Assembly (NCBI RefSeq): GCF_036365525.1
Contig: NC_090375.1
Span: forward strand, 130,920,002-130,984,001
Direction of reading: 5' to 3'
DNA from: Heterodontus francisci
Taxonomy: Eukaryota
DNA length: 64,000 nt
In this document: in pieces, positions 128-56,142 of the stretch
Layout: each line of letters begins with the position of its first letter
Position numbering within the stretch: the stretch's first letter is position 1
Program-made: the position numbers and the translations under genes
Notes under the pieces: generated by a model
The model's input: the letters and a program-made list of their open reading frames with translations, nothing else
Told to the model about the DNA's origin: nothing
Databases searched by the model: none

Positions 128-1367
128 CAAAGGTTTTTTATAGGCATATGAATAGTAAAAGAGTGGTAAAAGGAGGAGTGGGGCCGATTAGGGACCAACA
201 AGGGAATTTGCACATGGAGGCAGAGGGCATAGCTGAGGTATTAAATGAAAACTTTGCATGTCTTTAGCAAGGAGAAGATGCAAACCAGGCAATGGTGAAA
301 GGAGGTAATTCGGACACGAGAAGGGTTTAAAATTGATAAGGAGGAGTGTCTGTACTTAAAGTGAATAAAGCACCAGGACCAGATGAGAAGCATCCAAAAA
401 TAATTGGGGAAGTGAGAGTGGAAATTGCGGAGGCACTGGCCATAATTTTTCAGTTTTCCTCAGACTCGGGGGTAGTGCCAGAGGACTGGAGAATTGCAAA
501 TGTTCAAAAAAGGGTGTAAAGATAAGCCCAGCAACTACAGGCCAGGTCAGTTTAACTTTGGTGGAGGGGAAACTTCTAGAAAGATTAATTCGTGACAAAA
601 TTAATAGTCACATGGACAAATGCAGGTTAATTAAAGAAAGCCAGCATGGATTTCTTAAGGGAAAGTCATATTTAACTAACTTGCCAGAGTTTTTTGAAGA
701 GATAACAGAGAGGGTTAATGAGAGTAATGCATGGACTTTCAAAAGACGTTTGATACAGTGCCAGACAACAGACTTGTGAGCAAAGTTATAGTCATGGAAT
801 AAATGGGACAGTAGCAACATGGATACGGAATTGGCTGAGTGTAATGGTTAATGAAAGTTTTTCGGGCTGGAGGAAGGTTTGTAGTGGAATTCTCTAGGGG
901 TCAGTGTTTTTGCTTTTCCTAATATACATTAATGACCTAGACGTGGTGTACAGGGCACAATTTCAAAGTTTATGGATAATACAAAACTTGGAAGCATTGC
1001 GAACTGTGAGGAAGAGGACAAAAGAACATAGACAAGTTGGTGGAATGGGCAGACATGTGGCAAATGAAGTTCAATGCAGAGAAGTGTGAAATAATACATT
1101 TTGGTAGCAAGAGCATGGAGAGACAATATAAAATAAAGGGTACCATTCTAAACAGGGTGCAGGAGCAGAGTGACCTGGGTATATATGTGCATAAGTCATT
1201 GAAGGTGGCGGGACAGATTGAGAGAGCAGTAAATAAAGCATCCAGTATCCTGGGCTTTAGTAATAGAGGCATAGAGTCCAAGAGCAAGCAATTATGTAGA
1301 ACTTGTATAAGACACTAGTTCGACCTCGCCTGGAATATTGCCTCCAGTTCCAGGCACCGCACTTTAG
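123..1367 (+). mobile_element. CR1-type LINE ORF2 (RT) fragment, degenerate; inverted 5' part of the same copy
   Basis: ORFs 558-779 (ESQHGFLKGKSYLTNLPEFFEEIT) and 1037-1318 (WQMKFNAEKCEIIHFG..DLGIYVHKSLK) are CR1 RT motifs. Frameshifts present. Confidence 0.9.
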
Positions 1368-1859
1368 CAGCTGAAAAACAGCTTTCATAAACTTGGACAC
1401 AAAATGGATATTTACACATTTTAAGGAATCTTACAGTTTTACACATTTAAGGCAAGAACATTTCTTAAATTTTTGGGGGAAAAGCTTTAAATAGAAAGCA
1501 AAACCTTTTACCAATACAGAGAACTTGGAACATCAACTTTATGTTAGCTGCCTGTGCTTTGTGCTGACAGCCAACATTTTGTGGAACTACCCAGAAAAAA
1601 CAGAACAGATTCGGTGCCGCTTCCCCTAAGCCTGGCTACAAAATGATTCTAGCTGTTGCATTGGTTGGCATCTTTCCATCTACGAAAGATGATGGACATG
1701 CAGCAAACAATCCATTTAGGTGGGGTGCCTTGGTGCTACAAGTACTGCACATGAAGCCGCCAAGTGACGCTTTGAGTTGTTCATTTTGATGTTGGTGCTT
1801 GTTGCCAAGCTGCTGTAGCAACTGGCTGTCATGGTAGTGCACACCGATCCACAGGATGT

Positions 1860-2300
1860 GTTGCCATTTCCCTCTTTCGCCAGCTAGTGACTCTCAGATG
1901 TGATAGTCAACATTTCGGGCCTTCAGGTCACGCTTGCAAGCATCCTTGAAGCAGAGCTTTGGGTGCCCCACTGTTCTTCTGGCACAGGCCACCTCACCAT
2001 ACAGAAGGTCCTTGGATATGCGACTGTCTTCCATCCTGCAGATGTGTCCGATCAACCAAAGCTGCCTCTGTTTGATTAGTGCCAACACACCTGGGAGCTC
2101 TGCCTTTGAGAGGACTGCTGCATTTGTGATTTTGTCCTGCCAGGATATACCCATAATGCGCCACAGACAGTGAAGAAGGAAATTATTGAGCTTCTTTTCC
2201 TGGTAGTTGTAAGTTGCCCATGTTTCACAGCCAAACAGCAAGGTGTTGAGAACACAGGCCTTATAAAGCTGTTGCATATGGTTATGGCAATTCTCTCCAT
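1860..2300 (-). mobile_element. RTE-clade LINE 3' fragment
   Basis: ORF 1894-2319 contains LYKACVLNTLLFGCETW..RIMGISWQDKITNAAVL..GHICRMED..LLYGE, typical of the RTE C-terminus. Confidence 0.85.
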
Positions 2301-2671
2301 AACAGGAGTTCTCACACACTTGTCAGCTGGAATCGTTTCTCAGCAGGACTCAGGAGTAGCACTGAGGGAAGAGGGAAGGGAGGGGGGAAATGGCTGTCAA
2401 AGGAGGAAATTTGACTGTAATGAATGAGGGGTAGAAGGTGGGTGGGGGGGAATAGATGGCAATGAAAGCAGGGAAGGAGATATATTGGAATATCTAGCAT
2501 TAAGCTGTGAAGAAAAATGACTTTTAGAGATGAATTACTGGCCTTTGCATAAAATATTGTGATGAGATTTTTGCATGGGCCTTTTAATTTTCACCAGCGT
2601 TTAATATTTCTGGTACAATGACAATTGATGCTATGGTATCCTGATGACTTTTGACAAGTTTAATAGAAATG

Positions 2672-3063
2672 TCAGCTGTGGCTCAGCTGGTAGCATACTT
2701 GCCTCTCAGTCAGAAGGCTGTGGATTCAAATTCTGAGACTTGACAACAAAAATCTAGGCTTTAGTGCAGTACTGAGGGATGAGATGTTAAATCAAAGCCC
2801 TGCCTGGTCCCTCAGGTGCACATCAAAGATCCCATTTCAAAGGTGAGCAGGGGAGATATCTCCAGTGCCCTAGCTAATTTATCCCTCAATCAACATCACT
2901 GAAATAGATTGTCTAGTCGTTATTATATTGTTGTTTGTGGGAATTGGCTGTGTTTCCTACATTACGACAGTGGCTAAAATTCAAGTGTACTTCCTTGGCT
3001 GTAAAGTGCTTTGGGACATCCTGAGGTCATGAAAGATGCTAGATAAATGAAAGACTTTCTTTC
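2672..3063 (+). mobile_element. tRNA-derived Deu-domain SINE (SacSINE1/AmnSINE-like)
   Basis: A-box tggctcagctgg, B-box-like ggattcaaat, Deu-like core tcaggtgcacatcaaagatccc..atttatccctcaatcaacatcac, and L2-like tail tgtaaagtgctttgggacatcctgagg..ctttctttc. Family name from recall of the consensus. Confidence 0.65.
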
Positions 3064-4082
3064 GTAAGTAGATAACTTTGCAAGAATAACAAAAGCCACT
3101 TAATATCAGGGAAGAAAGATGCACAAGACCAGGATTAGGACCCAAAACAATAAATTCCTGATGATTGAGATGGGTAATTGGGTGAGGGAAGTCACAATGA
3201 GTCTTGTGAACTCAGATCTGAGGTTGATTTCTCTTATCCTTAGCACAGTTTTTGTTAGAAAATATACTTTTAACTTTATTTTATTTGTACCTCGAAACCA
3301 ATTTCCTGTCAATTATAAATACAGCTTCCTGGTAGACTCAGGCTCAACACAACCAATAAGTATAGAACAACAAATCAGAGTTCTGAAAGATGTCACAAAT
3401 ACAATAAAGTACAAATTAGAGGAAGAGATGCTTAAACTGCACATGGTCCTGTCAACTTTTGAGAGCTTGAATGCCTTTCTTTTATCTATCTGTTCTCATT
3501 TCTGACTACTTTTTCTATCTCACTGACTTTATGTATTTTTGTCCCAGTTGAATGAAAGATTTTTGAACTCAGATTTTCTTTAATCTAATTTTTCTGTATC
3601 TTGATGTTTCTCACTCTCTTCCTCACTGTCTCTTAAATTAGTCTCTCAATCTGAATTATTAAGATTTATAGAACAACAGTGAACAACAGGTCTGTCCCAC
3701 ACAACTGTGATGCCTTGTGCATCACAATATGTAAATTCCCCTTCCCACTTGAAATCCAGGTAATATTCTGGGAGAGGTGAAAAACCAGAAACAAATCCAG
3801 ACCAATTAGGGGGGGGGGGAAATCTGGAAAATTCCTCTCCTTATGTGATCAAGACTAATGCACGAGACCACACGAGATACTTCTCTTCCTCGACTTCTTT
3901 GCCTCCATCTCTGGGGATGGGCTGTCCACTAATATTCATTACAAGCCCACTAACTCCCACAACTACCTTGACTTCACTTCCTCACATCCTGCCTCCTGTG
4001 GGGACTCCATTCCATTCTCTCAGTTTCTCCTTTCCGATGCATCTGTCCTGATAATACAACTTTCCATAACAGCACTTCTGAT

Positions 4083-4425
4083 TTTAATTTATTTAAGAGA
4101 TACAACACTGAAACAGACCCTTCGGCCCACCGAGTCTGTGCCGACCAACAACCACCAATTTATACTAATCCTACATTAGCCCCATATTCTTTATCACATC
4201 CCCACCATTCTCCTACCACCTACCTACACTAGGGGCAATTTATAATGGCCAAATTACCTATCAACCTGCAAGTCTTTGGCTGTGGGAGGAAACAGAAGCA
4301 CCCGGCGGAAACCCACACAGACACAGGGAGAACTTACTAACTCCACACAGGCAGTACCCAGAACTGAACCCGGGTTGCTGGAGCTGTGAGGCTGCGGTGC
4401 TAACCACTGCGCCACTGTGCCGCCC
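4083..4425 (-). mobile_element. HE1-like V-SINE inserted in the Penelope copy
   Basis: Reverse complement starts gggcggcacagtggcgcagtggttagcacc (A box), followed by B box, V-domain and the gggccgaaggg tail. PLE sequence resumes on both sides. Confidence 0.9.
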
Positions 4426-5463
4426 TGTGTCTTCCTTTTTCCTCAACTGAGGATTTCCCCCCCACCCTCCACCACCATTGTGGTTGACAGGGCCTTCGAC
4501 CATGCCCAACCCATTTCTCGCACTTCTGCCCTCACCCCTTCCCCTCCCTCCCAGAACCACCTAGTCCTCATTTTCCACGCCACCAGCCTCCACATCCAAA
4601 GAATCATCCACCACCGTTTCGACCACCTCCAGCGTGATGCCACCTCCAAACACATCTTCCCCTCCCCTGTCAGCATTCTGAAGGGACCATTCCCTCTGCG
4701 ACACCCTGGTCCACTCTTCCATCACTCCCGACACCTTGTCCCCTTCCCATTGCACCTTTCCATGCAATCGCAGGAGGTGTAATACCTGCCCTTTTGCCTC
4801 CTCTCTCCTCACCATCCAAGGTCCCAAACACTCCTTCCAGATGAAGCAGCAATTTACTTGTACTTCTTTCAATTTAGTATACCGTATTCGCTGCTCACAA
4901 TGTGGTCGCCTCTACATAGGGGAGACCAAACGTAGATTGGGTGACTGCCTTGCAGAACATCTTCATTCAATCTGCCAGCATAACCCCGAGCTTCCAGTTG
5001 CTTGCCATTTTAATTCACCACCCTGCCCTCACACCCACATTTCTGTCTGGCCTGCTGCAGTGTTCCAATGAAGCTCAACGCAAGCTCGAGGAACAACACC
5101 TCATCTTCCGGTTAGCACTCTACAGCCTTCTGGACTCAACATTGAGTTCAACGATTTCAGAGCATGACTGCCACTTTTATTTATTTATATATATTTTTTT
5201 AACCATGTGCCGGTCTTAAACATGTTTTTCATGCTTTTGCTTTTGGACAGAGCTGTTCATTATTCTGCTATTCACACTCTCTCTGGACTAGTGCTCTGTC
5301 TTTTACTACAACTATTAGCACTCCCTTTGCCTTTTATTCCATGACATTGTTGTCATTTAATCTCTCCTGCCCTCCACCCGATCATACACTTTCCCTTTTT
5401 GTTCTTCTTTCCCCCCTTCCCCCTTTCACTTGCTCAAAGCCTATTACATTTCTAACCTTTGCC

Positions 5464-5500
5464 AGTTCTGATGAAAGGTCACAGACCTGAAACGTTAACC
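5464..5500 (+). ncRNA. Minimal type I hammerhead ribozyme motif (PLE-associated)
   Basis: AGTT-CTGATGA-A-AGGTC/ACA/GACCT-GAAAC-GTT-AAC: canonical core, 5-bp stem II, palindromic AACGTT stem III. Confidence 0.8.
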
Positions 5501-6814
5501 CTGTTTCTCTTTTCACAGATGTTACAAGACCTGCTGAGTATTTCCAGAACTTCCTGCTTCTTTTTCTGATTTCCAGCATCTGCAGTATTTTGCTTTTATA
5601 TTAGCCTGTTTTATAAGTCCATAAGACTTGACAAAATTTGACAAGCCTCAAAGAAGATATCAGCTTGGAAGCAGTTTTTTCCAATGAGGATGTGTAATAG
5701 ATTCCCAGTTAAAGTACTTACTATAATACCTTAAAAAAAGCTGGATGAAAATCTGGATAAGATTGGGGATAAGTATTATTCAGATCCACTTAAATAGAGT
5801 AATTAAGGATGTAAGGAACATGGTGGATCCAAAGCTTTAATCATAAATGTGTGATACCACAAAGCCATCAAGTCAAGGATTCATAATATTGGCTGTAAGA
5901 TGAGTAAGATATTCTCAAATGTTTATTGGTTCTCTTTGGGAAACAGAAACTAAAACTTTGCCAAACCTTTCCTCAGGAGATAAATGACTTCTGTGAAGTC
6001 CTTAATTTGGTTGAATGTATTTAGTTTGTAGAAAGAACGGACCTGGTGATCTGAATGGCTTTTTCACGTTCTATGCTTCTTATGTGTTCACCTCTTGTCA
6101 TGAAGGAGTGTCTTTCTTGATTCCTGTTTTTCCTCAACCATATCATGAGACTTCACCAATTTTATCAACATCAGGGATATGTTAGAACCAGTAAAATGGG
6201 CATTTGATCACAAGTACCTTTTAAGTGTGATGGTGTGTTTATTTTTAAGTAACATATATACATCAAGATAGGTCAGATTTTTAAATCAGAATTGAGTGTT
6301 TGTCGCTCAAAATGGGTAACACTTGAAAAGACTGACTTCAATAATATTTCCACCAACTGACAGCTGCACTGCAAGACTTCTTAAGCATTTGACATGCCCA
6401 TATCACAACAGAAAATCTGTTCAGTTCAGCATGCCAGTTCAATCTGTCTCATAGTTCCTGCCAGTGGTTCAGCCTTTTCAGTCAACCTGGAACCCTGATA
6501 CAATAGTTGTCAAGTAAGTGTAGCAATCCTGATATTTCCGATGCTCTTGCCAGAGGGTCAAAAATACATTTATTGTGAAATATCACTCCCCTGCCTACTG
6601 TGGAAAGATCATATTCAGTTTGTGTTGTACAAAAATGCATTAGCACAGTTTCGTTTTGTAGTGAGTCCAGGTGCTGGCAACATGCAGAGTACTATTAATT
6701 CTAATATGGCAAATTGCCATGGTAACTTCGCAGTGTAATAATCTATAAAGGTAGCATGTTCGAATAAAAATCTTACAGTTGTATTTGATTTCTTGATCCA
6801 AATGTCCAAAAACA

Positions 6815-7500: not shown

Positions 7501-7514
7501 GAGAGAAATTGAAT
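7501..7514 (+). repeat. Left 14-bp TSD of the palindromic PLE (gagagaaattgaat)
   Basis: Identical to 12605-12618, immediately outside the other end. Confidence 0.92.
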
Positions 7515-7576
7515 CAAAAACAAGAAATGTTGGATTCACTCAGCAGGTCTGGCAGCATCTGTGGAAAGAGAAGCAG

Positions 7577-7613
7577 AGTTAACGTTTCGGGTCAGTGACC
7601 CTTCTTCGGAACT
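7577..7613 (-). ncRNA. Hammerhead ribozyme motif, left PLE arm
   Basis: Reverse complement of 12465-12501. Confidence 0.7.
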
Positions 7614-7993
7614 GACAAATATTAGAAAAGTCACAGATTATAAACAAGTGAGGTGGGGGTGGGGCAAGAGATAACAAAGGAGAAGGTGCAGATTGGACCA
7701 GGCCACATAGCTGACCAAAAGGTCACGGAGCAAAGGCAAACAATATGTTAATGGTGTGTTGAAAGACAAAGCATTAGTACAGATTAGGTGTGAATATACT
7801 GAATTTTGAACATCAGCAAGTGCAAACCTGAAGAAAAACAACCTGAAAAAAACAGTGGGTAAGCAAACTGAACAAACTAAGATGAAATGAAATAAATGCA
7901 AAAAAAGATTGTAAAAAATGTAAAAAGGAATGCAAAAAAAAGGAAGAAAAAATAACTAAAAATGACTAAAAATGAAAGTAAAGTGGGGGGCTG

Positions 7994-10156
7994 TCATGCT
8001 CTGAAATTATTGAACTCAATGTTCAGTCCGGCAGGCTGTAGTGTGCCTAATCGGTAGATGAGATGCTGTTCCTCGAGCTTGCGTTGATGTTCACTGGAAC
8101 ACTGCAGCAATCCCAGGACAGAGATGAGAGCATGAGAGCAGGGGGGAGTGTTGAAATGGCAAGCAACCGGAAGCTCAGGGTCCTGCTTGCGGACTGAGCG
8201 GAGATGTTCCGCAAAGCGGTCACCCAGTCTGCGCTTGGTCTCCCCAATGTAGAGGAGACCACACTGTGAGCAGCGAATACAGTATACTACATTGAAAGAA
8301 GTACAAGTAAATCGCTGCTTCACCTGAAAGGAGTGTTTGGGGCCTGGGATAGTGAGGAGAGAGGAGGTAAATGGGCAGGTATTACACCTCCTGCGATTGC
8401 AAGGGAAGGTGCCCTGGGACGGGGACGAGGTGGTGGGGGTAATGGAGGAGTGGACCAGGGTGTCGCGGAGGGAACGATCCCTTCGGAATGCTGACAGGGG
8501 AAGGGAGGGGAAGATGCGACTGGTAGTGGCATCACGCTGGAGGTGGCGAAAATGGCGGAGGATCATCCTTTGGATATGGAGGCTGGTGGGATGAAAAGTG
8601 AGGACAAGGGGAACCCTGTCACGGTTCTGGGAGGGAGGGGAAGGGGTGAGGGTAGAGGTGCGGGGAATGGGTCGGACACGGTTGAGGGCCCTGTCAACCA
8701 CAGTGGGGGGAAATCCTCGGTTGAGGAAAAAGGAGGTCATATCAGAAGCACCGTCATGGAAGGTAGCATCATCAGAGCAGATGCGTCGGAGACGGAGAAA
8801 CTGGGAGAATGGAATGGAGTCCTTACAGGAGGTAGGGTGTGAAGAAGTGTAGTCGAGGTAGCTGTGGGAGTCAGTGGGCTTGGTAGACAACCTATCCCCA
8901 GAGATGGAGACAGAGAAGTCGAGGAAGGGAAGGGAAGTGTCAGAGATGGACCATGTAAAGGTGAGAGAAGGGTGGAAATTGGAAGCAAAGTTGATAAAGT
9001 TTTCTAGTTCGGTGCGGGAGCAGGAAACGGCACCGATACAGTCATCAATGTACCGGAAAAAGAGTTGGGGGAGGGGGCCTGAGTAGGACTGGAACAAAGA
9101 ATGCTCGACATATCCCACAAAAAGACAGGCATAACTAGGACCCATGCGGGTACCCATAGCGACACCTTTTACTTGAAGGAAATGCATGGAGTTGAAGGAG
9201 AAGTTGTTCAATGTGAGAACAGGTTCAGCCAGGCGGAGGAGGGTGTTGGTGGATGGGGACTGGTTGGGCCTCTGTTCCAGGAAGAAGCGGAGAGCCCTCA
9301 AACCATCCTGGTGGGGGATGGAGGTGTAGAGCGATTGGACGTCCATAGTGAAGAGGAGGCGGTTGGGACCAGGAAACTGGAAATTGTCAAAATGACGTAG
9401 GGCGTCAGAAGAGTCACGGATGTAGGTGGGAAGAGACTGGACCAGCGGAGAAAAGATAGAGTCTAGATAGGAAGAAATAAGTTCAGTTGGGCAGGAGCAG
9501 GCTGACACAATGGGTCTGCCGGGACAGTCCCGTTTGTGGATTTTGGGAAGGAGGTCGAAGCGGGCTGTCCGGGGTTGCGGGACTATGAGGTTGGAAGCTG
9601 TAGAGGGAAGATCTCCAGAGGAGATGAGGTCAGTGACAGTCCTTTGGACGGTGGCTTGATGTTCGGTGGTGGGGTCATGGTCCAGAGGGAGGTAGGAAGA
9701 GGTGTCTGTGAGTTGGCGTTGAGCTTCTGCAAGGTAGAGGTCGGTACGCCATACAACAACAGCACCACCCTTGTCTGCAGGTTTGATGACCATGTCGGGG
9801 TTAGACCTGAGAGAACGGAGTGCCTCAAGTTCAGAGGGGGACAGGTTAGAGTGAGTGAGGGGGGCAGAGAAATTGAGACGACCAATGTCTCGCCGACAGT
9901 TTTCAATGAAGAGATCAAGAGCGGGTAAGAGGCCAGGGTGAGGGGTCCAGGTAGAGGGAGAATGCTGGAGGCGGGTGAATGGGTCTGCTGGTCGGGGGGA
10001 GGACTCCTGGTCGAAGAAGTGAGCCCGGAGGCGGAGGCGACGGAAGAAGAGCTCAACGTCATGCCGAGCGCGAAATTCATTGAGGTGGGGGCGTAAGGGG
10101 ATAAAACTGAGACCTTTGCTGAGTACAGAACGCTCAGCATCAGAGAGGGGGAGGTC
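7994..10156 (-). CDS. Penelope-like RT plus GIY-YIG ORF, left arm (5'-truncated at DLPLSDAERSVLSKGL; 4-aa in-frame deletion)
   Basis: Open frame with KPADKGG, TMDVQSLYTSIP, GVAMGTRMGPSYA, RYIDD, CNRRRCNTC linker, VVYCIRC..YIGET and terminal GLN. The listed extension to 10531 is antisense of the right arm. Confidence 0.9.
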   Translation of the reverse strand, partial: DLPLSDAERSVLSKGLSFIPLRPHLNEFRARHDVELFFRRLRLRAHFFDQESSPRPADPFTRLQHSPSTWTPHPGLLPALDLFIENCRRDIGRLNFSAPLTHSNLSPSELEALRSLRSNPDMVIKPADKGGAVVVWRTDLYLAEAQRQLTDTSSYLPLDHDPTTEHQATVQRTVTDLISSGDLPSTASNLIVPQPRTARFDLLPKIHKRDCPGRPIVSACSCPTELISSYLDSIFSPLVQSLPTYIRDSSDALRHFDNFQFPGPNRLLFTMDVQSLYTSIPHQDGLRALRFFLEQRPNQSPSTNTLLRLAEPVLTLNNFSFNSMHFLQVKGVAMGTRMGPSYACLFVGYVEHSLFQSYSGPLPQLFFRYIDDCIGAVSCSRTELENFINFASNFHPSLTFTWSISDTSLPFLDFSVSISGDRLSTKPTDSHSYLDYTSSHPTSCKDSIPFSQFLRLRRICSDDATFHDGASDMTSFFLNRGFPPTVVDRALNRVRPIPRTSTLTPSPPSQNRDRVPLVLTFHPTSLHIQRMILRHFRHLQRDATTSRIFPSLPLSAFRRDRSLRDTLVHSSITPTTSSPSQGTFPCNRRRCNTCPFTSSLLTIPGPKHSFQVKQRFTCTSFNVVYCIRCSQCGLLYIGETKRRLGDRFAEHLRSVRKQDPELPVACHFNTPPCSHALISVLGLLQCSSEHQRKLEEQHLIYRLGTLQPAGLNIEFNNFRA

Positions 10157-10273
10157 TTCATTGAAAACTGTCGGCGAGACATTGGTCGTCTCAATTTCTC
10201 TGCCCCCCTCACTCACTCTAACCTGTCCCCCTCTGAACTTGAGGCACTCCGTTCTCTCAGGTCTAACCCCGAC

Positions 10274-12085
10274 ATGGTCATCAAACCTGCAGACAAGGGT
10301 GGTGCTGTTGTTGTATGGCGTACCGACCTCTACCTTGCAGAAGCTCAACGCCAACTCACAGACACCTCTTCCTACCTCCCTCTGGACCATGACCCCACCA
10401 CCGAACATCAAGCCACCGTCCAAAGGACTGTCACTGACCTCATCTCCTCTGGAGATCTTCCCTCTACAGCTTCCAACCTCATAGTCCCGCAACCCCGGAC
10501 AGCCCGCTTCTACCTCCTTCCCAAAATCCACAAACGGGACTGTCCCGGCAGACCCATTGTGTCAGCCTGCTCCTGCCCAACTGAACTTATTTCTTCCTAT
10601 CTAGACTCTATCTTTTCTCCGCTGGTCCAGTCTCTTCCCACCTACATCCGTGACTCTTCTGACGCCCTACGTCATTTTGACAATTTCCAGTTTCCTGGTC
10701 CCAACCGCCTCCTCTTCACTATGGACGTCCAATCGCTCTACACCTCCATCCCTCACCAGGATGGTTTGAGGGCTCTCCGCTTCTTCCTGGAACAGAGGCC
10801 CAACCAGTCCCCATCCACCAACACCCTCCTCCGCCTGGCTGAACCTGTTCTCACATTGAACAACTTCTCCTTCAACTCCATGCATTTCCTTCAAGTAAAA
10901 GGTGTCGCTATGGGTACCCGCATGGGTCCTAGTTATGCCTGTCTTTTTGTGGGATATGTCGAGCATTCTTTGTTCCAGTCCTACTCAGGCCCCCTCCCCC
11001 AACTCTTTTTCCGGTACATTGATGACTGTATCGGTGCCGTTTCCTGCTCCCGCACCGAACTAGAAAACTTTATCAACTTTGCTTCCAATTTCCACCCTTC
11101 TCTCACCTTTACATGGTCCATCTCTGACACTTCCCTTCCCTTCCTCGACTTCTCTGTCTCCATCTCTGGGGATAGGTTGTCTACCAATATCCATTATAAG
11201 CCCACTGACTCCCACAGCTACCTCGACTACACTTCTTCACACCCTACCTCCTGTAAGGACTCCATTCCATTCTCCCAGTTTCTCCGTCTCCGATGCATCT
11301 GCTCTGATGATGCTACCTTCCATGACGGTGCTTCTGATATGACCTCCTTTTTCCTCAACCGAGGATTTCCCCCCACTGTGGTTGACAGGGCCCTCAACCG
11401 TGTCCGACCCATTCCCCGCACCTCTACCCTCACCCCTTCCCCTCCCTCCCAGAACCGTGACAGGGTTCCCCTTGTCCTCACTTTTCATCCCACCAGCCTC
11501 CATATCCAAAGGATGATCCTCCGCCATTTTCGCCACCTCCAGCGTGATGCCACTACCAGTCGCATCTTCCCCTCCCTTCCCCTGTCAGCATTCCGAAGGG
11601 ATCGTTCCCTCCGCGACACCCTGGTCCACTCCTCCATTACCCCCACCACCTCGTCCCCGTCCCAGGGCACCTTCCCTTGCAATCGCAGGAGGTGTAATAC
11701 CTGCCCATTTACCTCCTCTCTCCTCACTATCCCAGGCCCCAAACACTCCTTTCAGGTGAAGCAGCGATTTACTTGTACTTCTTTCAATGTAGTATACTGT
11801 ATTCGCTGCTCACAGTGTGGTCTCCTCTACATTGGGGAGACCAAGCGCAGACTGGGTGACCGCTTTGCGGAACATCTCCGCTCAGTCCGCAAGCAGGACC
11901 CTGAGCTTCCGGTTGCTTGCCATTTCAACACTCCCCCCTGCTCTCATGCTCTCATCTCTGTCCTGGGATTGCTGCAGTGTTCCAGTGAACATCAACGCAA
12001 GCTCGAGGAACAGCATCTCATCTACCGATTAGGCACACTACAGCCTGCCGGACTGAACATTGAGTTCAATAATTTCAGAGCATGA
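10274..12085 (+). CDS. Penelope-like RT plus GIY-YIG ORF, right arm (603 aa from an internal Met, N-terminus missing)
   Basis: Uninterrupted ORF with the same RT (RYIDD) and GIY-YIG motifs. Confidence 0.92.
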   Translation: MVIKPADKGGAVVVWRTDLYLAEAQRQLTDTSSYLPLDHDPTTEHQATVQRTVTDLISSGDLPSTASNLIVPQPRTARFYLLPKIHKRDCPGRPIVSACSCPTELISSYLDSIFSPLVQSLPTYIRDSSDALRHFDNFQFPGPNRLLFTMDVQSLYTSIPHQDGLRALRFFLEQRPNQSPSTNTLLRLAEPVLTLNNFSFNSMHFLQVKGVAMGTRMGPSYACLFVGYVEHSLFQSYSGPLPQLFFRYIDDCIGAVSCSRTELENFINFASNFHPSLTFTWSISDTSLPFLDFSVSISGDRLSTNIHYKPTDSHSYLDYTSSHPTSCKDSIPFSQFLRLRCICSDDATFHDGASDMTSFFLNRGFPPTVVDRALNRVRPIPRTSTLTPSPPSQNRDRVPLVLTFHPTSLHIQRMILRHFRHLQRDATTSRIFPSLPLSAFRRDRSLRDTLVHSSITPTTSSPSQGTFPCNRRRCNTCPFTSSLLTIPGPKHSFQVKQRFTCTSFNVVYCIRCSQCGLLYIGETKRRLGDRFAEHLRSVRKQDPELPVACHFNTPPCSHALISVLGLLQCSSEHQRKLEEQHLIYRLGTLQPAGLNIEFNNFRA

Positions 12086-12464
12086 CAGCCCCCCACTTTA
12101 CTTTCATTTTTAGTCATTTTTAGTTATTTTTTCTTCCTTTTTTTTGCATTCCTTTTTACATTTTTTACAATTTTTTTTGCATTTATTTCATTTCATCTTA
12201 GTTTGTTCAGTTTGCTTACCCACTGTTTTTTTCAGGTTGTTTTTCTTCAGGTTTGCACTTGCTGATGTTCAATATTCAGTATATTCACACCTAATCTGTA
12301 CTAATGCTTTGTCTTTCAACACACCATTAACATATTGTTTGCCTTTGCTCCGTGACCTTTTGGTCAGCTATGTGGCCTGGTCCAATCTGCACCTTCTCCT
12401 TTGTTATCTCTTGCCCAACCCCCACCTCACTTGTTTATAATCTGTGACTTTTCTAATATTTGTC

Positions 12465-12501
12465 AGTTCCGAAGAAGGGTCACTGACCCGAAACGTTAAC
12501 T
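12465..12501 (+). ncRNA. Hammerhead ribozyme motif, right PLE arm (CCGAAGA core variant)
   Basis: AGTT-CCGAAGA-A-GGGTC/ACT/GACCC-GAAAC-GTT-AACT; stem I is AGTT/AACT. Confidence 0.7.
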
Positions 12502-12604
12502 CTGCTTCTCTTTCCACAGATGCTGCCAGACCTGCTGAGTGAATCCAGCATTTCTTGTTTTTGTTTCAGATTTCCAGCATCCACAGTATTTTGCTTTTAT
12601 TTTA

Positions 12605-12618
12605 GAGAGAAATTGAAT
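12605..12618 (+). repeat. Right 14-bp TSD of the palindromic PLE
   Basis: gagagaaattgaat, identical to 7501-7514. Confidence 0.92.
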
Positions 12619-16330: not shown

Positions 16331-18301
16331 TCTAACCTGGCAAACTACTGCACTATCAGCCTCCTCCCAATCATCTGTAAAGTGATGGAAGGAGTCTTTA
16401 ATAGTGTCATCAAGCAGCGCCGATTCAGGAATGACCTGATCAGTGATGCACTGTTTGGTTTCCACCAGAGCAACTCCACTCAACCTGATCATAGCCTTTA
16501 TCCAGACATCAATGCAAAAGCTGAATCCCAAGAGGTGAGAGTCATTGCCCGCAACATCAAGGCAACACTCTTCTAAGTACAGTACCAATGAGCTCAAACA
16601 AAACTGAGTTCAATAGGGGTCAAAGGGCTTCAGTGGCTGGAGTCATACCTGACACAAAGGAAGATGGTTGTGGCTTTCAAAGGCCAGTCATCACTACCCC
16701 AGGATATCACTATGTTAAACACTTGCCTGTAGGTTTAATTTGGGTTGAAGCCTATTGAATTAGACGTGCTTATGCATGTATGATTTCTAACATTAATTGA
16801 ATCTGGATTTCATGCAGACCAACAAAGCAGCAATATTTCATAACAATAAGAGGAAATCACATTACCTTCCACTATAAGGGAAGCTTGCCAATTCAGAACA
16901 AAGTGATCATGGGCCAGAATCTGCTGTCAAATAGTGGCAAGGCTATTGCCATTATTTGTGGTGAATGGTATAGCACTTTCAGACGAGGAGCACATGGGCA
17001 GTTAAATGTGAAAATCCAAATGTTGCTGTCTGAATTACACTGCTCTGTTAGCTTTGCAAAAATATTATCTTGCCCTTAGCCTCTCTGTTTTTTAGGAACT
17101 TGATGCATTTTCCCAGAAATCACAGAATTGTTTCAGCACAGAAGGAGGTCATTCTGTCCATTGTGTCTGTGCTGGCTCTCCAAAAGAGCAATTTACCTAA
17201 TGACATCTCCCCTGCCTTCTCCCCGTAGCCCTGCATATTCTTCCTTTTCAGATAACAATCCATATTCCCTCTTGAATGCCTCGATTGAACCTGCCTCCAC
17301 CACACTCTCAGGTAATGCAGTCCAGATCCCAACCAATTGCTGCGTGAAAAAGTTCTTCCTCATGTTGCCATTGCTTTTTTTTGCAAATTTCCTCAAATCT
17401 ATGCCCTCTTGTTCTCAATCCTTCCATAAATGGGAACAGTTTTCCCCTTATATATTCTGTCCAGACCCCTCATGATTTTGAACACCTATCAAATCTCCTC
17501 ACAACCATCTCATCTCCAAGGACAACAGTCCCAACTTCTGCAATTTATCATCATAACTGAAGTTCCTATTCCTGGGATCATTCTCGTGAATCTTTTCTGC
17601 ACTCTCTCTAATGCCTTCACATCTTTCCGAACGTGTGGTGCCTAGAACTGAACACAATACTCCAGTTGAGGCCAAACCAATATTCTATACAAGTTCAACA
17701 TAACCTCCTTGCCTTGTACTCTATGCCCTTATCAATGAAGCCAAGGATACTGTATGCCTTATTAACCGCGCTCTCAACCTGTTCTGCCACCTTCAATGAT
17801 TTATGCACATATACACCCAGATCCCTCTGCTCCTGCATCCCCTTTAAAATTGTACCCTTTCTTTTATATTGACTCTTCACATTCTTCCTACCAAAATTAA
17901 TCACTTCACACTTCTCTGCATTAAATTTCATCTGCCACTTGTCCGCCCATTCCACCAACCTGTCTATATCCTTTTGAAGTTCTACACTATCCTCCTCACA
18001 GTTCACAATGTTTCCAAGTTTCATATCATCTGCAAATTTTGAAGTTGTGCCCTGTAAACCAAGGTCTGGGTCAGGAATATATATCAGGAACAGCAAGGGT
18101 TCTAATACCGACCCTTGGTACTACCTCTAGTCTGATAAACATCCATTAGCCACTACACTCTGTTTCCTGTCACTCAGCCAATTTCATATCCATGTTGCTA
18201 CTGTCCCTTTTATTCCATGAGCTGTAACATTGCTCACAAGTCTGTTGTGTGGCACTTTATCAAATGCCTTCTGGAAATCCATGTACACCACATCAACAGC
18301 A

Positions 18302-20720
18302 GTGGGAGGCATTCAAAAGCGGAAATTCTACAGGCACAGTGTAGGCATGTCCCCACAAAGATAAAGGGTAGTACGGCCAAATCTAGAGTCCCCTGATTAT
18401 CTAGAAGCTTACAGGGTAAGTTAAAGCTGAAAAAGAAAGCTTATGACGATCACAAAAAGGTTAATGCTTTAGAAAGCCTGGAGGAGTATACAAAGTGCAG
18501 GGGTGTATTAAAAAAGAAATTAGAAAAGCAAAGAGAGGACATGAAAAATTATTGGCAGGTAAAATCAAGGAAAACCTGAAGATATTTTATCAGTACATTA
18601 AGAGCAATAGGATAACTAAGGAAAGGGTAGAGCTTATCAGAGATGTACAAGGGAACTTATGTGTGGATGCAGAAGATGTGGGCAGGGTTCTTACTGAGTT
18701 TTTTGTCTCTGTCTTCACAAAGGAGAGGGATGATGCAGACCTTGTAGTAAAAGAGGAGGAGTGTGAAATATTAGATACGATATGCATAATGAGAGAGGAC
18801 GTACTATGGAGTCTGACATCCTTGAAAGTGGATAAATCACCAGGGCCGGATGGATTGCATCCAGGTTGTTAAAGGAAGCCAGGGACGAAATAGGGGATGC
18901 GCTGAGGATCATCTTCAAATCCTCACTGGATATGGACGAGGTGCTAGAGGATTGGAGGTCTGTGAACATTGTATCATTGTTTAAAAAGGGTGCGAGGGAT
19001 AGGCCAAATAATTATAGGCTGTCAATCTGACCTCAGTGGTGGGTAATTTTTTTTTACTAAAACAGGCCCTTCGGCCCCCCGAGTCTGTACTGACCATTAG
19101 CCACCCATTTATACTAATCCTACATTAATCCCATATTCCCTACCACATCCCCACCTTCTCTCAATTATCCTACCACCTACCTACACTAGGGGAAATTTAC
19201 AATGGCCAATTTACCTAGCAACCTGCAAGTCTTTGGCTGTGGGAGAAAACCAGAGCACCCGGCAGAAACCCACACAGTCACATGGAGAACTTACTAACTC
19301 CACACAGGCAGTACCCAGAACCAAACCTGGGTTGCTGGAGCTGTGAGACTGCAGTGCTAACCATTGCACCACCTGCTGTGCTGCTGTCAATTCTGAGAGG
19401 CAGGATAAACTGCCACTTAGAAAGGCATGGATTAATCAGGGATAGTCAGCATGGATTTGTTCAGGAAAGATCATGTCTTACTAACCTAATTGAGTTTCTT
19501 CAGGAAGTAACAAGGAAAATTGATGAGGGTAGTGCAGTGGATGTGGTCTACGTGGATTTTAGTAAGGCATTTGACAAGGTCCCACATGACAGACTGGTCA
19601 GTAAAATGAAAGCCCATGGATACAGGGGAATGTGGCAGGTTGGATCCAAATTTGGCTCAGTGACAGGAAACAAAGGGTTGTAGTCAATGGATGTTGTTGT
19701 GAATGGAAAGTGGTTTCCAGTGGTGTTCCACAGGGCTCAGTGCTGGGTCCCTCGCTACTTGTGGTATATATTAATGATTTGGACTTAAATGTGGGAGGCA
19801 TGATTGAGAAATTTGCTGATGACACAAAAATTGGCCGTGTAGTTAGTGAAGCGGACAGCTGTAGACTCCAGAATATCAATGGTTTGGTTGAGTGGGCAGA
19901 AAAGTGGCAAATGGAATTCAATCCAGAGAAGTGTGAGGTAATGCATTTGGGGAGGGCAAATAAAGTGAGGGAATACACAGTAAACAGGAGGATATTGAGA
20001 GGGTAGAAGAATTGAGAGCCCTTCGAGTGCCTGTCCACAGGTCCCTGAAGGTGGCAGGACAGGTAGGTAGAGTGGTGAAGAAGGCATATGGAATGCTTTC
20101 CTTTATTGTCTAAGGTATAGAATACAAAAGAAGGGATGTGATGCTGGAACTGTATAAAATGCTAGTTAGGCCACAGCTGGTGTATTGCGTACAGTTCTGG
20201 TCACCCTATTACAGGAAGGACATAATTGCTCTGGAGAGAGTACGGAGGAGATTTACAAGAATGTTGCCAGGACTTGAAAGTTGCAGCTATGAGGAAAGAT
20301 TGGATCGGCTAGGGTTGTTTTCCTTGGAACAGAGGAGGCTGAGGGGTAACTTGATTGAGGTGTAGAAAATTATAAGGGGCCTAGATAGAGTAGACAGGAA
20401 GAACCTCTATCCCGTAGCAGAGAGGTCAATTACCAGGGGGCACAGATTTAAGGTAGAAAGATTAGAGGGGACATGAGGAAAAACCTTTTCACCCAGAGGG
20501 TGTTGGGAGTGTGGTATTCACTGCCAGGAATGGTGGTGGAGGCAGAAATCCTCAACTCATTTAAAAGGTACCTGGACATGCACCTGAAGTGCAGTAACCT
20601 GCAAGGCTATGGAGCAGGTGCTGGAAGGTGGGATTAGATAGGGCGACTAGTTTTTTTGGCTGTGGCTGAAATGATGGGCTGAATTGCCTCCTTCTGTGCT
20701 GTAATTTTTCTATGGTTCTA
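18302..20720 (+). mobile_element. CR1-type LINE nested in the minus-strand CR1
   Basis: ORFs 18495-18872, 19282-19683, 19632-20006 (SGVPQGSVLGP..FADDTK) and 20138-20365; 3' end tgctgtaatttttctatggttcta. Confidence 0.92.
19047..19385 (-). mobile_element. HE1-like V-SINE nested in CR1
   Basis: Matches the reverse complement of 15981-16330; more diverged. Confidence 0.85.
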
Positions 20721-22130
20721 TTACCTTGATCAAGCTTCTCTGTTACCTCATCAAAAAACTCCAGCAAGTTAGTTAAACATGATTTGCCCTTTATAAATCT
20801 GTGCTGGCTTTCCCTAATTAACCCGCATTTGCCCAAGTAACTATTCATTTTGTCCCGAACTATTGTTTCTAGAAGCTCCCCCACCACTGAGGTTAAACTG
20901 ACTGGCCTGTAGTTGCTGGGCTTATCTTTACACCCTTTTTGAACAAGGGTGTAACATTTGCAATTCTCCAGTCCTCTGGGACCACCCCTGAATCTAAGGA
21001 AGATTGGAAAACTATGGCCAGTGTCTCCGCAATTTCCGCCCTCACTTCCCTCAATATCCTTGTATGCATCTCATCTGGTCCTGGTGCCTTACTACTTTAA
21101 GTACAGACAGCCTATCCAATGCCTCCTTATCAATTTTAAACTCTTCAAGATCTGAATTACTTCCTCTTTCACCATGATCTGTGCAGCATCTTCTTCCTTG
21201 GTAAAGGCAGATGCAAAGTATTCATTTAATACCTCAGCCATGCCCTCTGCCTCCATGCTGTTATGCTCATGTGCAGTGCAGTGATAGAAATTACAGAACT
21301 CAAGCTGAAGAGTTATAAAAATTGACTTTTCATTTAAAAAGTGGACAATGTGCTGGAAAAATGGCTGCCAAGGGTCAAAAGACCTGACCTTGTATATTCA
21401 AACTGTCTTACTGTGTGGTAAGAACAAAAAGATACCTTCTAAGCTAAGAGGTATCAATTACATGCATCCTGAACCCATCAAGAGACATTTTTGATTGAAT
21501 GGGTTCTTCTGAAACAAAGAAGGTGTGAAGTAGCCACATTATGGGCCATTGTCGGTCACTACAGGGAGGAAGATTTATGTTTCCCAACAGAGGCAAGATG
21601 TGAGACTATTTTGACCTTAAAAGTAGCTCTCTGGAGAGAGAGAGAAGGAAACCCAGGAAAAACATCATGAAAGCTTGTCGAGCTGAAATCTAGGAGCAAA
21701 TCCAGCTAGCCAGAAATAAGGTGCCATGCCGTGAGTTCTATAATGCAACTTGGGCATGAGAAAACTGAAAGTGATCCCCAGACTCCAGACTGAAATTTCA
21801 ACTAACAGAGCAATCTACAAACAACACAGGCCTGCAACTTGAAAGAGAAATTGATCTCTGGGAAGATTTAACAGATTACTATGAACCCCGAAAACCTACT
21901 TTACTTCAAAGCCCTTACCTCTTTTCCTCTATATCTATCTCTTCTTGTGTGTGCATGCGAGTGAATGCGTGTGAGGGTATAGATGCGACTATTTTGGGAG
22001 TGAATATTTTCTCAGTAAATAGTTAATCTTCTGTTTTAAACCTGCAAGAAAACCTGTCGCTGTCTGTTTATTTGACAAATAAAACACAAAGGGAATTAAA
22101 ACCCTAGTAACAAAAACACTTGCTGCATTC

Positions 22131-22541
22131 GTTTTTTTATTCTTTCATGGGATGTGGGCATCACTGGCAAAGCCAGCATTTGTTGCCCATCCCTGATTGC
22201 CCTTGACAACTGAGTGTCTTGTTAGGCCATTTCAGTTAAGAGTCAACCATGTTGCTGTGGGTCTGGAGTCACATGTAGGCCAGATCAGGTAAGGACAGCA
22301 GATTTCCTTCCCTAAAGGACATTAGTGAACCAGATGGGTTTTTATGATAATCGATGATAGTTTCATGGCACCATTACTGAGACTAGCTTTCAATTCCAGA
22401 TTTTTTAGATTAATTAATTGAATTTATTAATTGAATTTAAATTCCACCAGCTGCCATGGTGGGATTTGAACCCATGTCCCCAGGGCATTAGCTAGGGCCT
22501 CTCGATTATTAGTTCAGTGACATTTCCACTACGCTTTCCCC
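22131..22541 (-). mobile_element. tRNA-derived SINE with a tail shared with the second-family LINE
   Basis: Minus-strand B box gggttcaaatcc. 3' end (plus strand ttcatgggatgtgggcatcactggc..tgcccatccc..ttgcccttga) matches the LINE ends at 13790, 25025 and 62090. Confidence 0.8.
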
Positions 22542-22584
22542 TGGTCAATTGGGAGTTGAACTGTGGGGACCACCTACACGCCTT

Positions 22585-27517: not shown

Positions 27518-28107
27518 AGTTCTGATGAAAGGTCATCAACCTGAAACGTTGGGCTGAATTTAGTGGTGGCAGCGCGGTCCCGCTGATGGGCCTGAAATTG
27601 CAGGGGTGACCTTGCTTCGGTGGTCAGCAGCAGCCAATTAAGCTATTAAGGATGGCCATCCACCTCCCCCCCCCCAAAGAGCTACTGGCCAATCAGAGGG
27701 CAGCCATTACTGCTGGGGGGACACTTCCATGGGTCAAAGGGTGCCCAAAAAGGAGTGGCCCTCCCGAGGATCCCACTGGGAGGCTGCCAGGGTCTACCTG
27801 GCAGACTGCCTACACAGGGGAGATCCCTCCCCACCACTGATAAAATGCCAGTGGAGGTGGGAAGAGGCCTTTAATTGGCCACTTAAGCGGCTCAATTGGC
27901 CTCTGGGCAGGCAGGCCATCCATCACCTTCCCCACCACTGGCAGTTCCCTCCCCCACCAATTCCCAGCCCATTCCCAGAGGGCTGGTAAAATTCAGCCTG
28001 TTAACGCCATTTCTCTCTCCACAGATGCTGCCAGATCTGCTGAAAATTTTCAGCATTTTCTGATTTTATTTCAAATTTCCAGCATCTGCGGTATTTTGCT
28101 TTTATGT
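27518..28107 (+). mobile_element. Short PLE 3' end (hammerhead plus tail) split by a MITE
   Basis: agttctgatgaaaggtcatcaacctgaaacgtt | MITE | gttaacgcc..cagatgctgccag..gtattttgcttttat. Confidence 0.85.
27551..27999. mobile_element. PIF/Harbinger-type MITE
   Basis: TIRs gggctgaattt / aaattcagcct; 3-bp TSD gtt (27548-27550, 28000-28002). Confidence 0.8.
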
Positions 28108-51321: not shown

Positions 51322-51449
51322 TCTGACGAAAGGCCACAGGCCTGAAATGTTAACTCTGTTTCTCTCTCCACAGATGCTGCCAGACCTGCTATTTCCAACA
51401 TTTTCTGGGGTTTTTTCAAATTTCCAGCATCTGCAGTGTTTGCTTTTGT
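51322..51449 (+). mobile_element. 128-bp PLE 3' unit (hammerhead plus tail) with 11-bp TSD
   Basis: CTGACGA-A-AGGCC/ACA/GGCCT-GAAAT-GTT-AACT then the PLE tail; flanks atgctcattat / atgctcaatat. Confidence 0.8.
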
Positions 51450-52064
51450 ATGCTCAATATCCCCTTTAACTTGTTTTCACCTTAATAATTTTGATGTAAA
51501 TTATGTGAAAGCTTCTGTGTTAATGACTTTTCCTCAGTGGCAAGAAGTTGCAATTCTTTCATTTGCCCACTAGATGTGGCTTTGCAGAAAAGAGCCTCTC
51601 GTCTGAGTTGCAGGAATTTTCTGGTAAGTCTTTGTTAACCAATCAGATTCTGCAGAACTGTCTGGAATCCTGACAAACATATGACAGTATTTGTTACTGA
51701 GGTGGGTGCTATAATATAGAAGGCTTGTGCAATTCAAAGCGCAGTAAAATGTAAGGAGGTATTTTAGACTATTCTTTTTCCAGGGTCACGTTTCCAAAAT
51801 AATGGAATTTGTACAGCATCAGCCTGATTTAGAATTTGTAGCACTACTTTTCGATGTATTTTTATGGGTCAAAGTGTGTTTCAGTTCACTATGTAGGGTG
51901 GATCAAATGTCTTTACTTTGATTGGATAACATAATTTCTTTTTTATAGCAAGGACTTTGATCTGGTTTAAATTTCATTATGTTTTAGTGTTAATGCAACA
52001 TTAGCACTATGGGTAGAGAATTACTTTTTCTGTGTCGCTGTAGTTTGACTGTGAAGGCTTCCTG

Positions 52065-53745: not shown

Positions 53746-55783
53746 TCTCTGTCGCACCAACAGAACAGAGCTCTTTACAAAAACTATATTACTGCCCCGT
53801 TTGGGCGTAACAAGTCCTGTGCCTTGCGTCCCAAGAACATCTGAAGAATGTCTGACTTGAGATTAAGTCAGGCCTTTTTTCAGGCAACCAGTGTGGTTTT
53901 CCTAGGACAGGCATTTGGCCTCTTGAATAGACTAATGAGGGGCCTGAAGCCTAGTTTAGGACCCCTAAGGGAAAACGGGATGCCCAGACATAAGGCCTGC
54001 TCCCACCAATGGGAGTCTCTCTTGAAAGGCTCAGTAGTCTCTTACACCTACCTTCAGCGGGGGCCTGTGAGGAGGGATCTCTCTCAGCCTTGGTCTCTCT
54101 TCCTACCCCCACCCACAAATCCCAGGCCTCAGGGAGCAGGACCTGACCAAACCGGTGCCATGGTTTCCCTGGCACTTTGTGTGAATGAACCTGGGACTCC
54201 GAGTATCTCCTCCTCATCCTCGGGGCCTCTTACCTGCTGAATGTGGTGTCCTGAATCCATAAACAGGTCCCTTCTCTCTGGCTGAAGCACAAACTTTGGG
54301 GTCACATGCTACGTCACCCATAACTCATGCATATACATCAGCACGTAGTGCAAAGTACCTCATGATCACTTCAGGCTCCAGGCTCAGCAAAGCTGTGGCA
54401 GGCCACACTTCTGGTTTCTTCAGGTGCACATACACAGTCCTGAACAAAAGAGGAATTGCTAAAAATCCCCAGTTTTCGAAGCGAGGGTTTGAATTTGACT
54501 TGAGAAATCTCACCTCTCGCAATTAATTTGTGAAAGTTAACATGGCTGAGCAATAACAGTGGCCCTGTGGCCCCAGCGGCAGTATGAAGACAACACACCA
54601 AAAGTTGCAAGCAAGGCCATGAGAAACAATATGGGTCTGGAATTCCAGGAAAGCTGTAAAGGGGAAAAATATGCAAAAAATTAAATCATAGTTCAATGTT
54701 CTTCTTACCTCCTTTACTAACCTATACCAACATGGTGAAAATAGAAAGGAGGCCCTAAGCTTTGAGATGCTCCAAAGTAATACTCAGTGGGCAGAGCCTG
54801 AAAGTGCAAGGAGTGTTTTTTTAAACTATGGACTTTCTATACTGCAGTAGTTATCAATTTTAGCAGCTGTCACAGTTATCTGCGGTTAAATGTTGCCAGT
54901 TTTAAACTGTGTTTTCCTTTAATGAAACCTGACACCTGATTTTTCAACATATTTTGAGATAGAATGTTGCAGCACACTGAGTAGTTTTAATATAGAATAA
55001 ATATTGTTCAGTCACTGTTGTTGGTGGACCAGAGTGAAATGTAAGCTTGTGCAGGTTTGCAAAATCGAGTAGCTATTGTTCTTGAAAACATCTGGCCTGG
55101 CTTTCAGGCAGCATTAGGAATCCTCATTAAAAACAGGCAAGAGCTTCATTTCAGTATTTAAATATATTGCATGAATGAGTGAATGGGAAGAAAAGTAGCA
55201 GTGACAGGGAAGTACTAACCCTGAGCTTCAGTGATGTTTCCAGGTTCACTGTGGCACACTCACTCTACATTGTCAGGCCCCCTATGTTCAGCATGACCTG
55301 TTCATATGGTTTGAGGGTCTGAAGTGAGGGGTGCCCTACAGTTCTGGTCTACTCCCCCATGTTATATATCACTTTGTCCAGCAGCAGAGAATAGTGCTAC
55401 AATATTGGAAGTTTGGAGAGCGCATAAAGAATGACAGCCTGTTTGCTCAGAACAGGAGTCGGCCATTCAGCCCCTCAAGCCTGGTCTACCATTAAGTTAG
55501 ATCATGGTTGATCTGTATCTGAACTCCATTTACCCACCTGGTGTCCCAGTTCTTGTGTAAATAAATGAATGTGCAACATGCAGGGTAGTTGTGCGATAAG
55601 CTTGTTTTGTGGGATCACCTTTTCAAATGGCCACGCAACAGCAATTCCAATGTGAAGTAGCAGAAGTAAGGTATGCCCTGCTACAGTATGGAAATGTATG
55701 TTAAGCTTGGAAAGAACTGTTTCAGAAACATAGCAATTGCTAGATAAAAAAGACCAATCTCCATCCAGTTTGCATTCTATCAT

Positions 55784-55994
55784 AAAAGCAAAATACTGCG
55801 GATGCTGGAAATCTGAAATAAAAACAAGAAATGCTGGAACCACTCAGCAGGTCTGGCAGCATCTGTGGAAAGAGAAGCAGAGTTAACGTTTCGGGTCTTC
55901 CGAAGAAGGGTCACTGACCCGAAACGTTAACTCTGCTTCTCTTTCCACAGGTGCTGCCAGACCTGCTGAGTGGTTCCAGCATTTCTTGTTTTTA
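55784..55994. mobile_element. 211-bp palindromic mini-PLE with 14-bp TSD
   Basis: Inverted arms 55817-55897 and 55916-55996 (one mismatch), extra tail on the left arm, TSD ttgcattctatcat (55770-55783, 55995-56008). Confidence 0.92.
55898..55932 (+). ncRNA. Hammerhead motif at the centre of the mini palindrome
   Basis: TT-CCGAAGA-A-GGGTC/ACT/GACCC-GAAAC-GTT-AACT; stem I 5' strand truncated. Confidence 0.6.
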
Positions 55995-56142
55995 TTGCAT
56001 TCTATCATCCTGGCTGTCACATGATACAACAATAATGTAATTGACTAATCATAGCATTAGTCTATTACAATTAGTCTCCAACAGACATGACATGACATGA
56101 GGGAAACCTGTGGTGGACAGCTTTCGGAACCATAATCCAAAG

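Follow-up and report, generated by a model that had tools for sequence, protein, structure and literature searches.

A Penelope-like insertion of two head-to-head copies in one target-site duplication in Heterodontus francisci, and its family as evidence on mechanism

Introduction

How can a single target site come to hold two long copies of a retroelement that point away from each other? The question is raised by positions 7501-12618 of a 64,000-nucleotide stretch of DNA from Heterodontus francisci, the whole of which was analysed and is referred to here as the window. The head-to-head layout is already known for Penelope-like elements (PLEs) (PMC3846280, PMC8557442) and is routine in this genome.

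Inverted PLE repeat units with a target-site duplication (TSD) are described in PMC3846280, where a tail stands on one inverted repeat and the head-to-head orientation is the most frequent. PMC8557442 (Craig et al. 2021) presents a general scheme of PLE insertion units and names the formation of inverted units as unresolved. Inverted terminal repeats of variable size are described from Drosophila virilis (PMC2377424). A lizard PLE cuts and extends both strands in vitro, and two internal starts bound its tail; the protein is predicted to be a dimer (PMC11167929). In the parts considered here, that paper leaves the later steps open and offers no explanation of inverted copies. Twin priming and fold-back are described for L1 (10.1101/2024.12.14.628481), and the passages of 10.64898/2026.07.22.740005 considered here contain nothing bearing on head-to-head PLE insertions.

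The present analysis adds that sister arms share lineage markers, that either arm may be the longer, and that some inverted arms consist of the tail only. Counts of the tail, the template, the longer arm and the tail-only arms restrict the possible mechanisms and make predictions for the existing in vitro system.

Results

One insertion with two copies and a single TSD

The feature is real. It is one insertion of two 5'-truncated PLE copies, head-to-head within one TSD. The ruler, used unchanged, was a natural full-length unit at locus L031, which is 3304 bp long and has an open reading frame (ORF) of 955 aa.

7501..7514, + strand: left TSD copy, 14 bp, exact repeat
7515..10156, - strand: left copy, 5'-truncated, unit 609-3263, untailed, with a 12-bp deletion (alignment to the L031 unit)
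9913..10154, - strand: 242-bp spacer, the additional 5' portion of the left (longer, untailed) copy
10155..10156, no strand: 2-nt overlap common to both copies at the head-to-head junction
10155..12604, + strand: right copy, 5'-truncated, unit 853-3304, tailed (alignment to the L031 unit)
12564..12604, + strand: 41-nt tail, right arm only
12605..12618, + strand: right TSD copy, 14 bp, exact repeat

Coordinates and self-alignment agree with the preliminary description of two inverted copies, a 242-bp spacer and a single 14-bp TSD. Its two different 5' truncations joined at 10155-10156 correspond to the unit starts 609 and 853, and the right 3' end does lie 41 nt beyond the left. The window contains exactly two copies of the 14-mer, and the repeat is not extendable; the chance of such a repeat at most 30 nt from both insertion ends is about 4e-5. 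Self-blast aligns 7505-9912 with 12574-10155 over 2421 columns at 99.1% identity. The arms differ internally by six substitutions, one 1-bp gap and one 12-bp gap, in which right-arm positions 11186-11197 have no counterpart in the left copy (left deletion at 8881/8882). Compared to canonical PLE units, the locus has two long arms (2.4 and 2.6 kb) and lacks an upstream partial tandem. It shares with such units, for example Pen2a_Av of Adineta vaga (PMC3846280) and the scheme of PMC8557442, an inverted, 5'-truncated copy placed head-to-head in one TSD and a tail of the 30-40-bp kind at one end only. Its 14-bp TSD differs from the 8-10 bp of the rotifer examples.

The left TSD junction is found without differences on a 1965-nt read contig; the reads come from one sample, sequenced in three runs, which may also be the source of the assembly and so gives no independent support. 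Single-copy depth is 2-6 per run, and none of the read-contig pieces listed bridges 10154/10155. Among the read-contig matches listed, there is no empty-site loose end at 7514.

An endonuclease-bearing PLE with a linker

The right arm carries much of the coding region.

10157..12085, + strand: open 642-aa remnant of the 955-aa ORF (reverse transcriptase (RT) and GIY-YIG), N-terminus missing; no stop in the right arm
10292..10300, + strand: DKG motif of Penelope-like RTs
11015..11026, + strand: RT catalytic motif YIDD
11678..11704, + strand: CX4CxxC linker, CNRRRCNTC, of Neptune/Nematis type
11792..11836, + strand: GIY-YIG core with two internal cysteines of the CCHH motif; histidines downstream

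The motifs VY..YIG, DKG and YIDD are all present in the window. The full-length copy at L031 has a single ORF with RT and C-terminal GIY-YIG, the organization of endonuclease-bearing PLEs, and matches RVT_1 (E 3.7e-5) as well as GIY-YIG (E 0.006), each of them under the Pfam cut-off; the RVT_1 match of the right arm is likewise under the cut-off. The GIY-YIG at 11792-11836 with its downstream histidines is of the CCHH type of these elements. Across the family we found tandem and inverted copies (pseudo-LTRs), an optional 30-40-bp tail and TSDs, as expected of PLEs; partial tandems occur at L031, L036, L129 and L161.

The element is an endonuclease-bearing PLE with a linker of Neptune/Nematis type. 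A CX2-5CxxC linker lies between RT and endonuclease, and the DKG motif and the C-terminal GIY-YIG with CCHH cysteines are likewise common to the locus and Neptune/Nematis PLEs. According to PMC8557442 the linker marks Neptune and Nematis and is missing in Penelope/Poseidon; the presence of this Zn-finger-like motif here does not fit the Penelope/Poseidon clade. The copy at the locus is likely dead, because the ORF start is missing from both arms.

Two fixed 3' ends in register with a U-rich motif

The 3' repeat contains, in order, a minimal hammerhead-like pattern, the ATG of the ORF and the two 3' sites.

12463..12501, + strand: minimal hammerhead-like motif (pattern match); mirror at ~7615, - strand
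12520..12522, + strand: ATG that opens the ORF when the 3' repeat stands upstream of a full unit
12555..12564, + strand: U-rich motif at the inner (untailed) 3' site
12591..12600, + strand: U-rich motif at the outer (tailed) 3' site

Both 3' ends are in register with TTGYTTTTRT, whose two copies are spaced by 36 nt. This spacing agrees with the modal ends of the family, 3263/3264 and 3300/3301. The preliminary description had noted TCCAGCAT shortly before each end. It is indeed present at 12544 and 12573, with a single mismatch, at 7530, in the copy on the left arm. As an end signal it was rejected on register, its copies being 29 nt apart; TTGYTTTTRT fits instead. At 41 nt, the tail of the locus is near the upper limit of tail lengths in the family.

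Minimal hammerhead motifs of the kind matched here are described in PMC4209133. The 5-bp helix II of the pattern is paired in 132 matches, but young copies have the core CCGAAGA. An Rfam search gave no hammerhead and one chance match, and the predicted fold of the 145-nt 3' end is not more stable than those of shuffled sequences (z -0.11). An initiator-like TCAGTT just precedes the motif, and 5' ends of the family pile up there. The ribozyme cut site was discarded as the source of this pile-up: 2 of 114 arm 5' ends lie at unit 3195-3201. It is not a usual end in PAc (Anolis Poseidon, PMC11167929) either. PAc and the family further share two 3' sites that lie inside the ORF start, bound the tail and follow just downstream of a hammerhead motif, hammerhead-like by pattern in the family. 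They differ in that PAc is a Poseidon without the linker motif and starts in an AC-rich stem loop, whereas the sites of the family are U-rich.

The layout is common in the genome

Unlike published PLE units, the family is present in thousands of copies, so counting is possible. The genome contains 16,267 exact matches to a 30-mer taken from immediately within the inner 3' site. Among the first 100 matches listed, neighbors within 7 kb form 19 outward pairs, four same-strand pairs and no inward pair. All 77 clusters of these 100 matches were taken as a sample; with one duplicate removed, they comprise 78 insertions. Two arms are present in 32 of the 78 (about 41%), 20 are single and tailed, and 26 are single and untailed; L112 was counted as single, its short second arm falling below the identity filter. 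The rarity that the preliminary description implied is supported neither by the literature nor by the sample. Scaled up from the sample, we estimate about 12,900 insertions, of which 3,900-6,800 would be two-armed.

The 14-bp TSD recurs across the family: a TSD of at least 8 bp was found in 65/78 insertions and measures 13-15 bp in 42 of these 65, with a mode of 14, and some calls of 8-10 bp may be chance. The 3' ends were called in this sample, 14 further loci and the window. As the preliminary description had predicted, the 115 calls are bimodal, with 52 at unit 3261-3266, 54 at 3297-3304 and none at 3267-3293; one more lies at 3294 and eight below 3258. The 30-mer anchor biases against ends below 3263, not against ends between the two peaks.

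Before counts, the duplicates L083, L040, L173 and L174 and the right part of L088 (an older interrupted copy) were dropped. L167 and L169, with spurious TSD calls, were left out of the target profile, and unit 2790-2960 was masked in the pair and lineage-marker analysis.

Both arms exceed 2 kb in one of the 78 sampled insertions, and many two-armed ones are shorter than 300 bp. The locus at 7501-12618 is in the long tail of the size range and is of the same kind as the others. It is an ordinary long-armed example, and the value lies in the family as a mechanistic dataset.

Arm pairs combine one tailed and one untailed end

In 29 of the 30 pairs with both ends typed, one arm is tailed and the other untailed. 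No pair has two tailed arms. The sole pair with two untailed arms is L146, for which no TSD was found; two further pairs have one untyped end. If each arm chose its end independently, 29/30 mixed pairs would have a P of 1.8e-8. Single-armed insertions make up 46/78, so double priming is not obligatory.

The arms of a pair have a common template. Lineage markers agree between sister arms at 55/67 sites and between insertions at 139/1197 (16 long-overlap pairs). The arms of the locus differ at 6/2389 sites; between the right arm and its closest other copies, compared over at least 2000 sites, the differences are 10/2031 and 15/2389. These comparisons favor derivation of the arms from one template rather than from two independent RNAs.

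Private variants are common to sister arms in 26 cases and arm-specific in 64. Two private variants shared by the arms of the locus, at 10845 and 11515, have 201 and 10 exact matches in the genome. In 20 other carriers (12/199 and 8/8), neither the two variants together nor the haplotype of the locus was present. Shared private variants fit a lost source element, arm-from-arm copying or gene conversion equally.

Either arm may reach further 5'. In 49 hand-curated pairs the untailed arm extends more than 50 nt further in 13 and the tailed arm in nine, and the two end within 50 nt of each other in 27. Some inverted arms are tail-only or nearly so (L092, L096, L188, L191, L192). At L188, which has a 16-bp TSD, the tail arm spans unit 3264-3299 and abuts the start of the other arm at about 3263 without overlap.

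The target sites were compared at both nicks. T is found two bases beyond the nick in 39/57 primed-untailed, 31/54 primed-tailed and 23/41 unprimed cases, and also at both nicks of the locus. This enrichment on all sides is as expected if one nuclease makes both nicks. An excess of A at the last base of the primer was set aside, since maximal TSD calling can create it.

Discussion

Probable priming at both nicks on one RNA

The reading that we prefer, and hold to be somewhat better than an even bet, is that a staggered cut left two DNA ends and that each of them primed a cDNA on one and the same element RNA, at two U-rich sites separated by 36-41 nt. The nuclease would nick both strands about 14 nt apart. 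Of the two 3'-OH ends, one would then start synthesis at the inner site, and its partner would use the outer one. If outer-primed synthesis halted at or before the inner site, a tail-only inversion would result; otherwise it would continue through the inner site and displace the first cDNA. The two cDNA 3' ends would be joined across 0-6 nt of overlap or filler, and host repair would complete the insertion by filling in. The lineage markers common to sister arms, the greater length of either arm and the tail-only arms favor this reading over two separate RNAs or simple fold-back. The cutting and extension of both strands and the two internal starts of the lizard element in vitro (PMC11167929) also speak for it, though that element is a Poseidon and the present one is not.

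The double target-primed reverse transcription of the preliminary description finds support in three respects: a single event, 3' ends at two defined positions, and the use of both nicks as primers. The template of the second arm may have been RNA, as in that description, or the first cDNA; an RNA-templated and a DNA-templated second arm have identical sequence at birth.

An inverted and a direct piece in one TSD, from one template, are marks of twin priming and are seen here. In LINE-1 twin priming, as suggested for the tail-only cases here, the second nick primes on the same RNA and leaves an inverted piece in one TSD. LINE-1 makes two cDNAs from different parts of the RNA with a variable second site, whereas in the family neither site varies and the arms overlap as a rule, which creates a palindrome. 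A programmed form of twin priming in PLEs seems to us evenly poised between right and wrong. In it, one ribonucleoprotein would prime from both nicks on a single RNA, always at the same two positions, and the synthesis that trails would displace the cDNA ahead of it. If true, one rule would cover the head-to-head palindromes, the inversions made of the tail alone and the restriction of the tail to one side.

Alternative explanations

A hybrid with fold-back is unlikely in our view, and it is the alternative that survives best. Both nicks would be used and only one long cDNA would be made on RNA. Its 3' end would fold back, and the body of the second arm, copied from DNA, would meet a short tail cDNA that had started from the second nick; were the tailed cDNA first, the second arm would end at the inner site. 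Perfect hairpin junctions at L097, L137 and L157 and the variants private to the locus and common to both arms are in keeping with this, as are the self-priming proposed in PMC3846280 and the fold-backs with 2-bp homology at L1 breaks (10.1101/2024.12.14.628481). So is the correlation of arm 5' ends in the unselected sample (rho 0.75, n=30; 0.85 for the 11 long pairs). The correlation is 0.15 in a set of 26 long pairs, some of them from loci selected because one arm is long, and in 11 of these 26 the 5' ends are more than 400 nt apart, which argues against fold-back. Many central junctions, moreover, hold filler instead of overlap, and the locus would require a 242-nt loop closed by 2 nt. Fold-back in its pure form, from a tailed first cDNA, predicts that the tailed arm is always the longer; it is contradicted by the locus and excluded wherever the untailed arm is longer. 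If the template RNA was sense, the longer untailed arm of the locus is not a copy of the tailed cDNA, and the tail is not a copy of the untailed cDNA.

Two separate RNAs, one per nick (for example one per dimer subunit), with gene conversion later homogenizing the arms, are improbable. The predicted dimer and the extension of both strands in vitro (PMC11167929) are compatible with this proposal, and markers are discordant within pairs at 12/67 sites, one of them at the locus. Alone, it accounts neither for the 29/30 tailed-plus-untailed pairs nor for tail-only arms whose synthesis ends at the inner site, and most of each arm would have to convert while 64 arm-specific differences persist. A variant in which one source locus supplied both RNAs may yet hold.

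A further proposal, self-priming on an antisense template and trimming of the tail from one end by the nuclease at resolution, follows hypotheses put forward for the head-to-head layout and the one-sided tail (PMC3846280, PMC8557442). We consider it very improbable: single-armed untailed copies with TSDs are common (26/78), and both ends of the tail correspond to RT starts on sense RNA in vitro (PMC11167929). An error of the assembly, or a pair of independent insertions into the same place, to which the unbridged central junction among the read contigs listed would lend itself, can practically be dismissed in view of the arm differences (six substitutions, the 12-bp gap and the tail), the single TSD, the left junction on a read contig and the same layout in 32/78 sampled insertions, many below 300 bp.

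Surroundings of the locus and possible effects on the host

A Pfam search of 150 of the 184 stop-to-stop frames of at least 75 aa outside the element, those up to about 53 kb in the window, found only RT fragments; such a scan would miss short exons. Double-stranded RNA from the arms would need a transcript crossing the locus. The initiator-like sites within the arms probably point outward, and among the data sets listed as carrying the sequence there is no RNA set. With near-perfect inverted repeats in the thousands, effects on double-stranded RNA and genome stability in the host are conceivable.

The window also contains a miniature of the same layout, bounded by its own 14-bp TSD (55770-55783 and 55995-56008).

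55770..56008, no strand: miniature with a tailed left arm and an untailed right arm

5' ends and the putative transcript start

Among the sampled insertions of this Penelope-like family, 50 of 114 arm 5' ends cluster at positions 3160-3180 of the unit (the full-length copy used as a ruler), which correspond to window 12463-12477. This cluster is likely the transcript start of the family. The hexamer TCAGTT sits at the cluster; it is initiator-like, and similar to a 3' splice site as well. An extra G is present at a few family junctions.

The core of the hammerhead-like motif (window 12469-12475) reads CCGAAGA in the young subfamily, whereas older copies, such as that at window 5462, carry CTGATGA. 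This difference is accompanied by compensating changes in helix II.

Central junctions

Short additional templated pieces of the element are found at the central junctions of five other genomic loci (L032:4980-5104, L044:7454-7526, L168:7519-7548, L141 and L178). Such pieces point to template switching or to repair of the ends. In the insertion studied here, the frame of the left arm runs open through the central junction, creating an 855-aa stop-to-stop frame (window 7994-10561, minus strand) that is a chance product.

Arrays and nested copies

At loci L045-L050 (contigs C1676, C293 and C1991), a single truncated copy, beginning at unit 1772 in L045, recurs every 4-8 kb within tandem-repeat arrays, together with which it has multiplied. 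At L129:1500-10000, at least three near-identical full units are arranged head-to-tail, and the last is untailed. Young copies also lie within other copies of the family at L113, L088 and L120; the nested copies at L113 form a head-to-head pair.

Further family copies, along with other RT fragments, lie elsewhere in the window:

55770-56008, miniature family insertion in the head-to-head layout, flanked by a 14-bp TSD
3880-5604, older fragmented family copy, ~80% identical, split by a repeat at ~4083-4430
27972-28106 and 51321-51451, further old 3' ends of the family
17698-24139, other RT fragments clustered together; one frame among them, at 22664-24139, is 492 aa long (RVT_1, E 9e-37)
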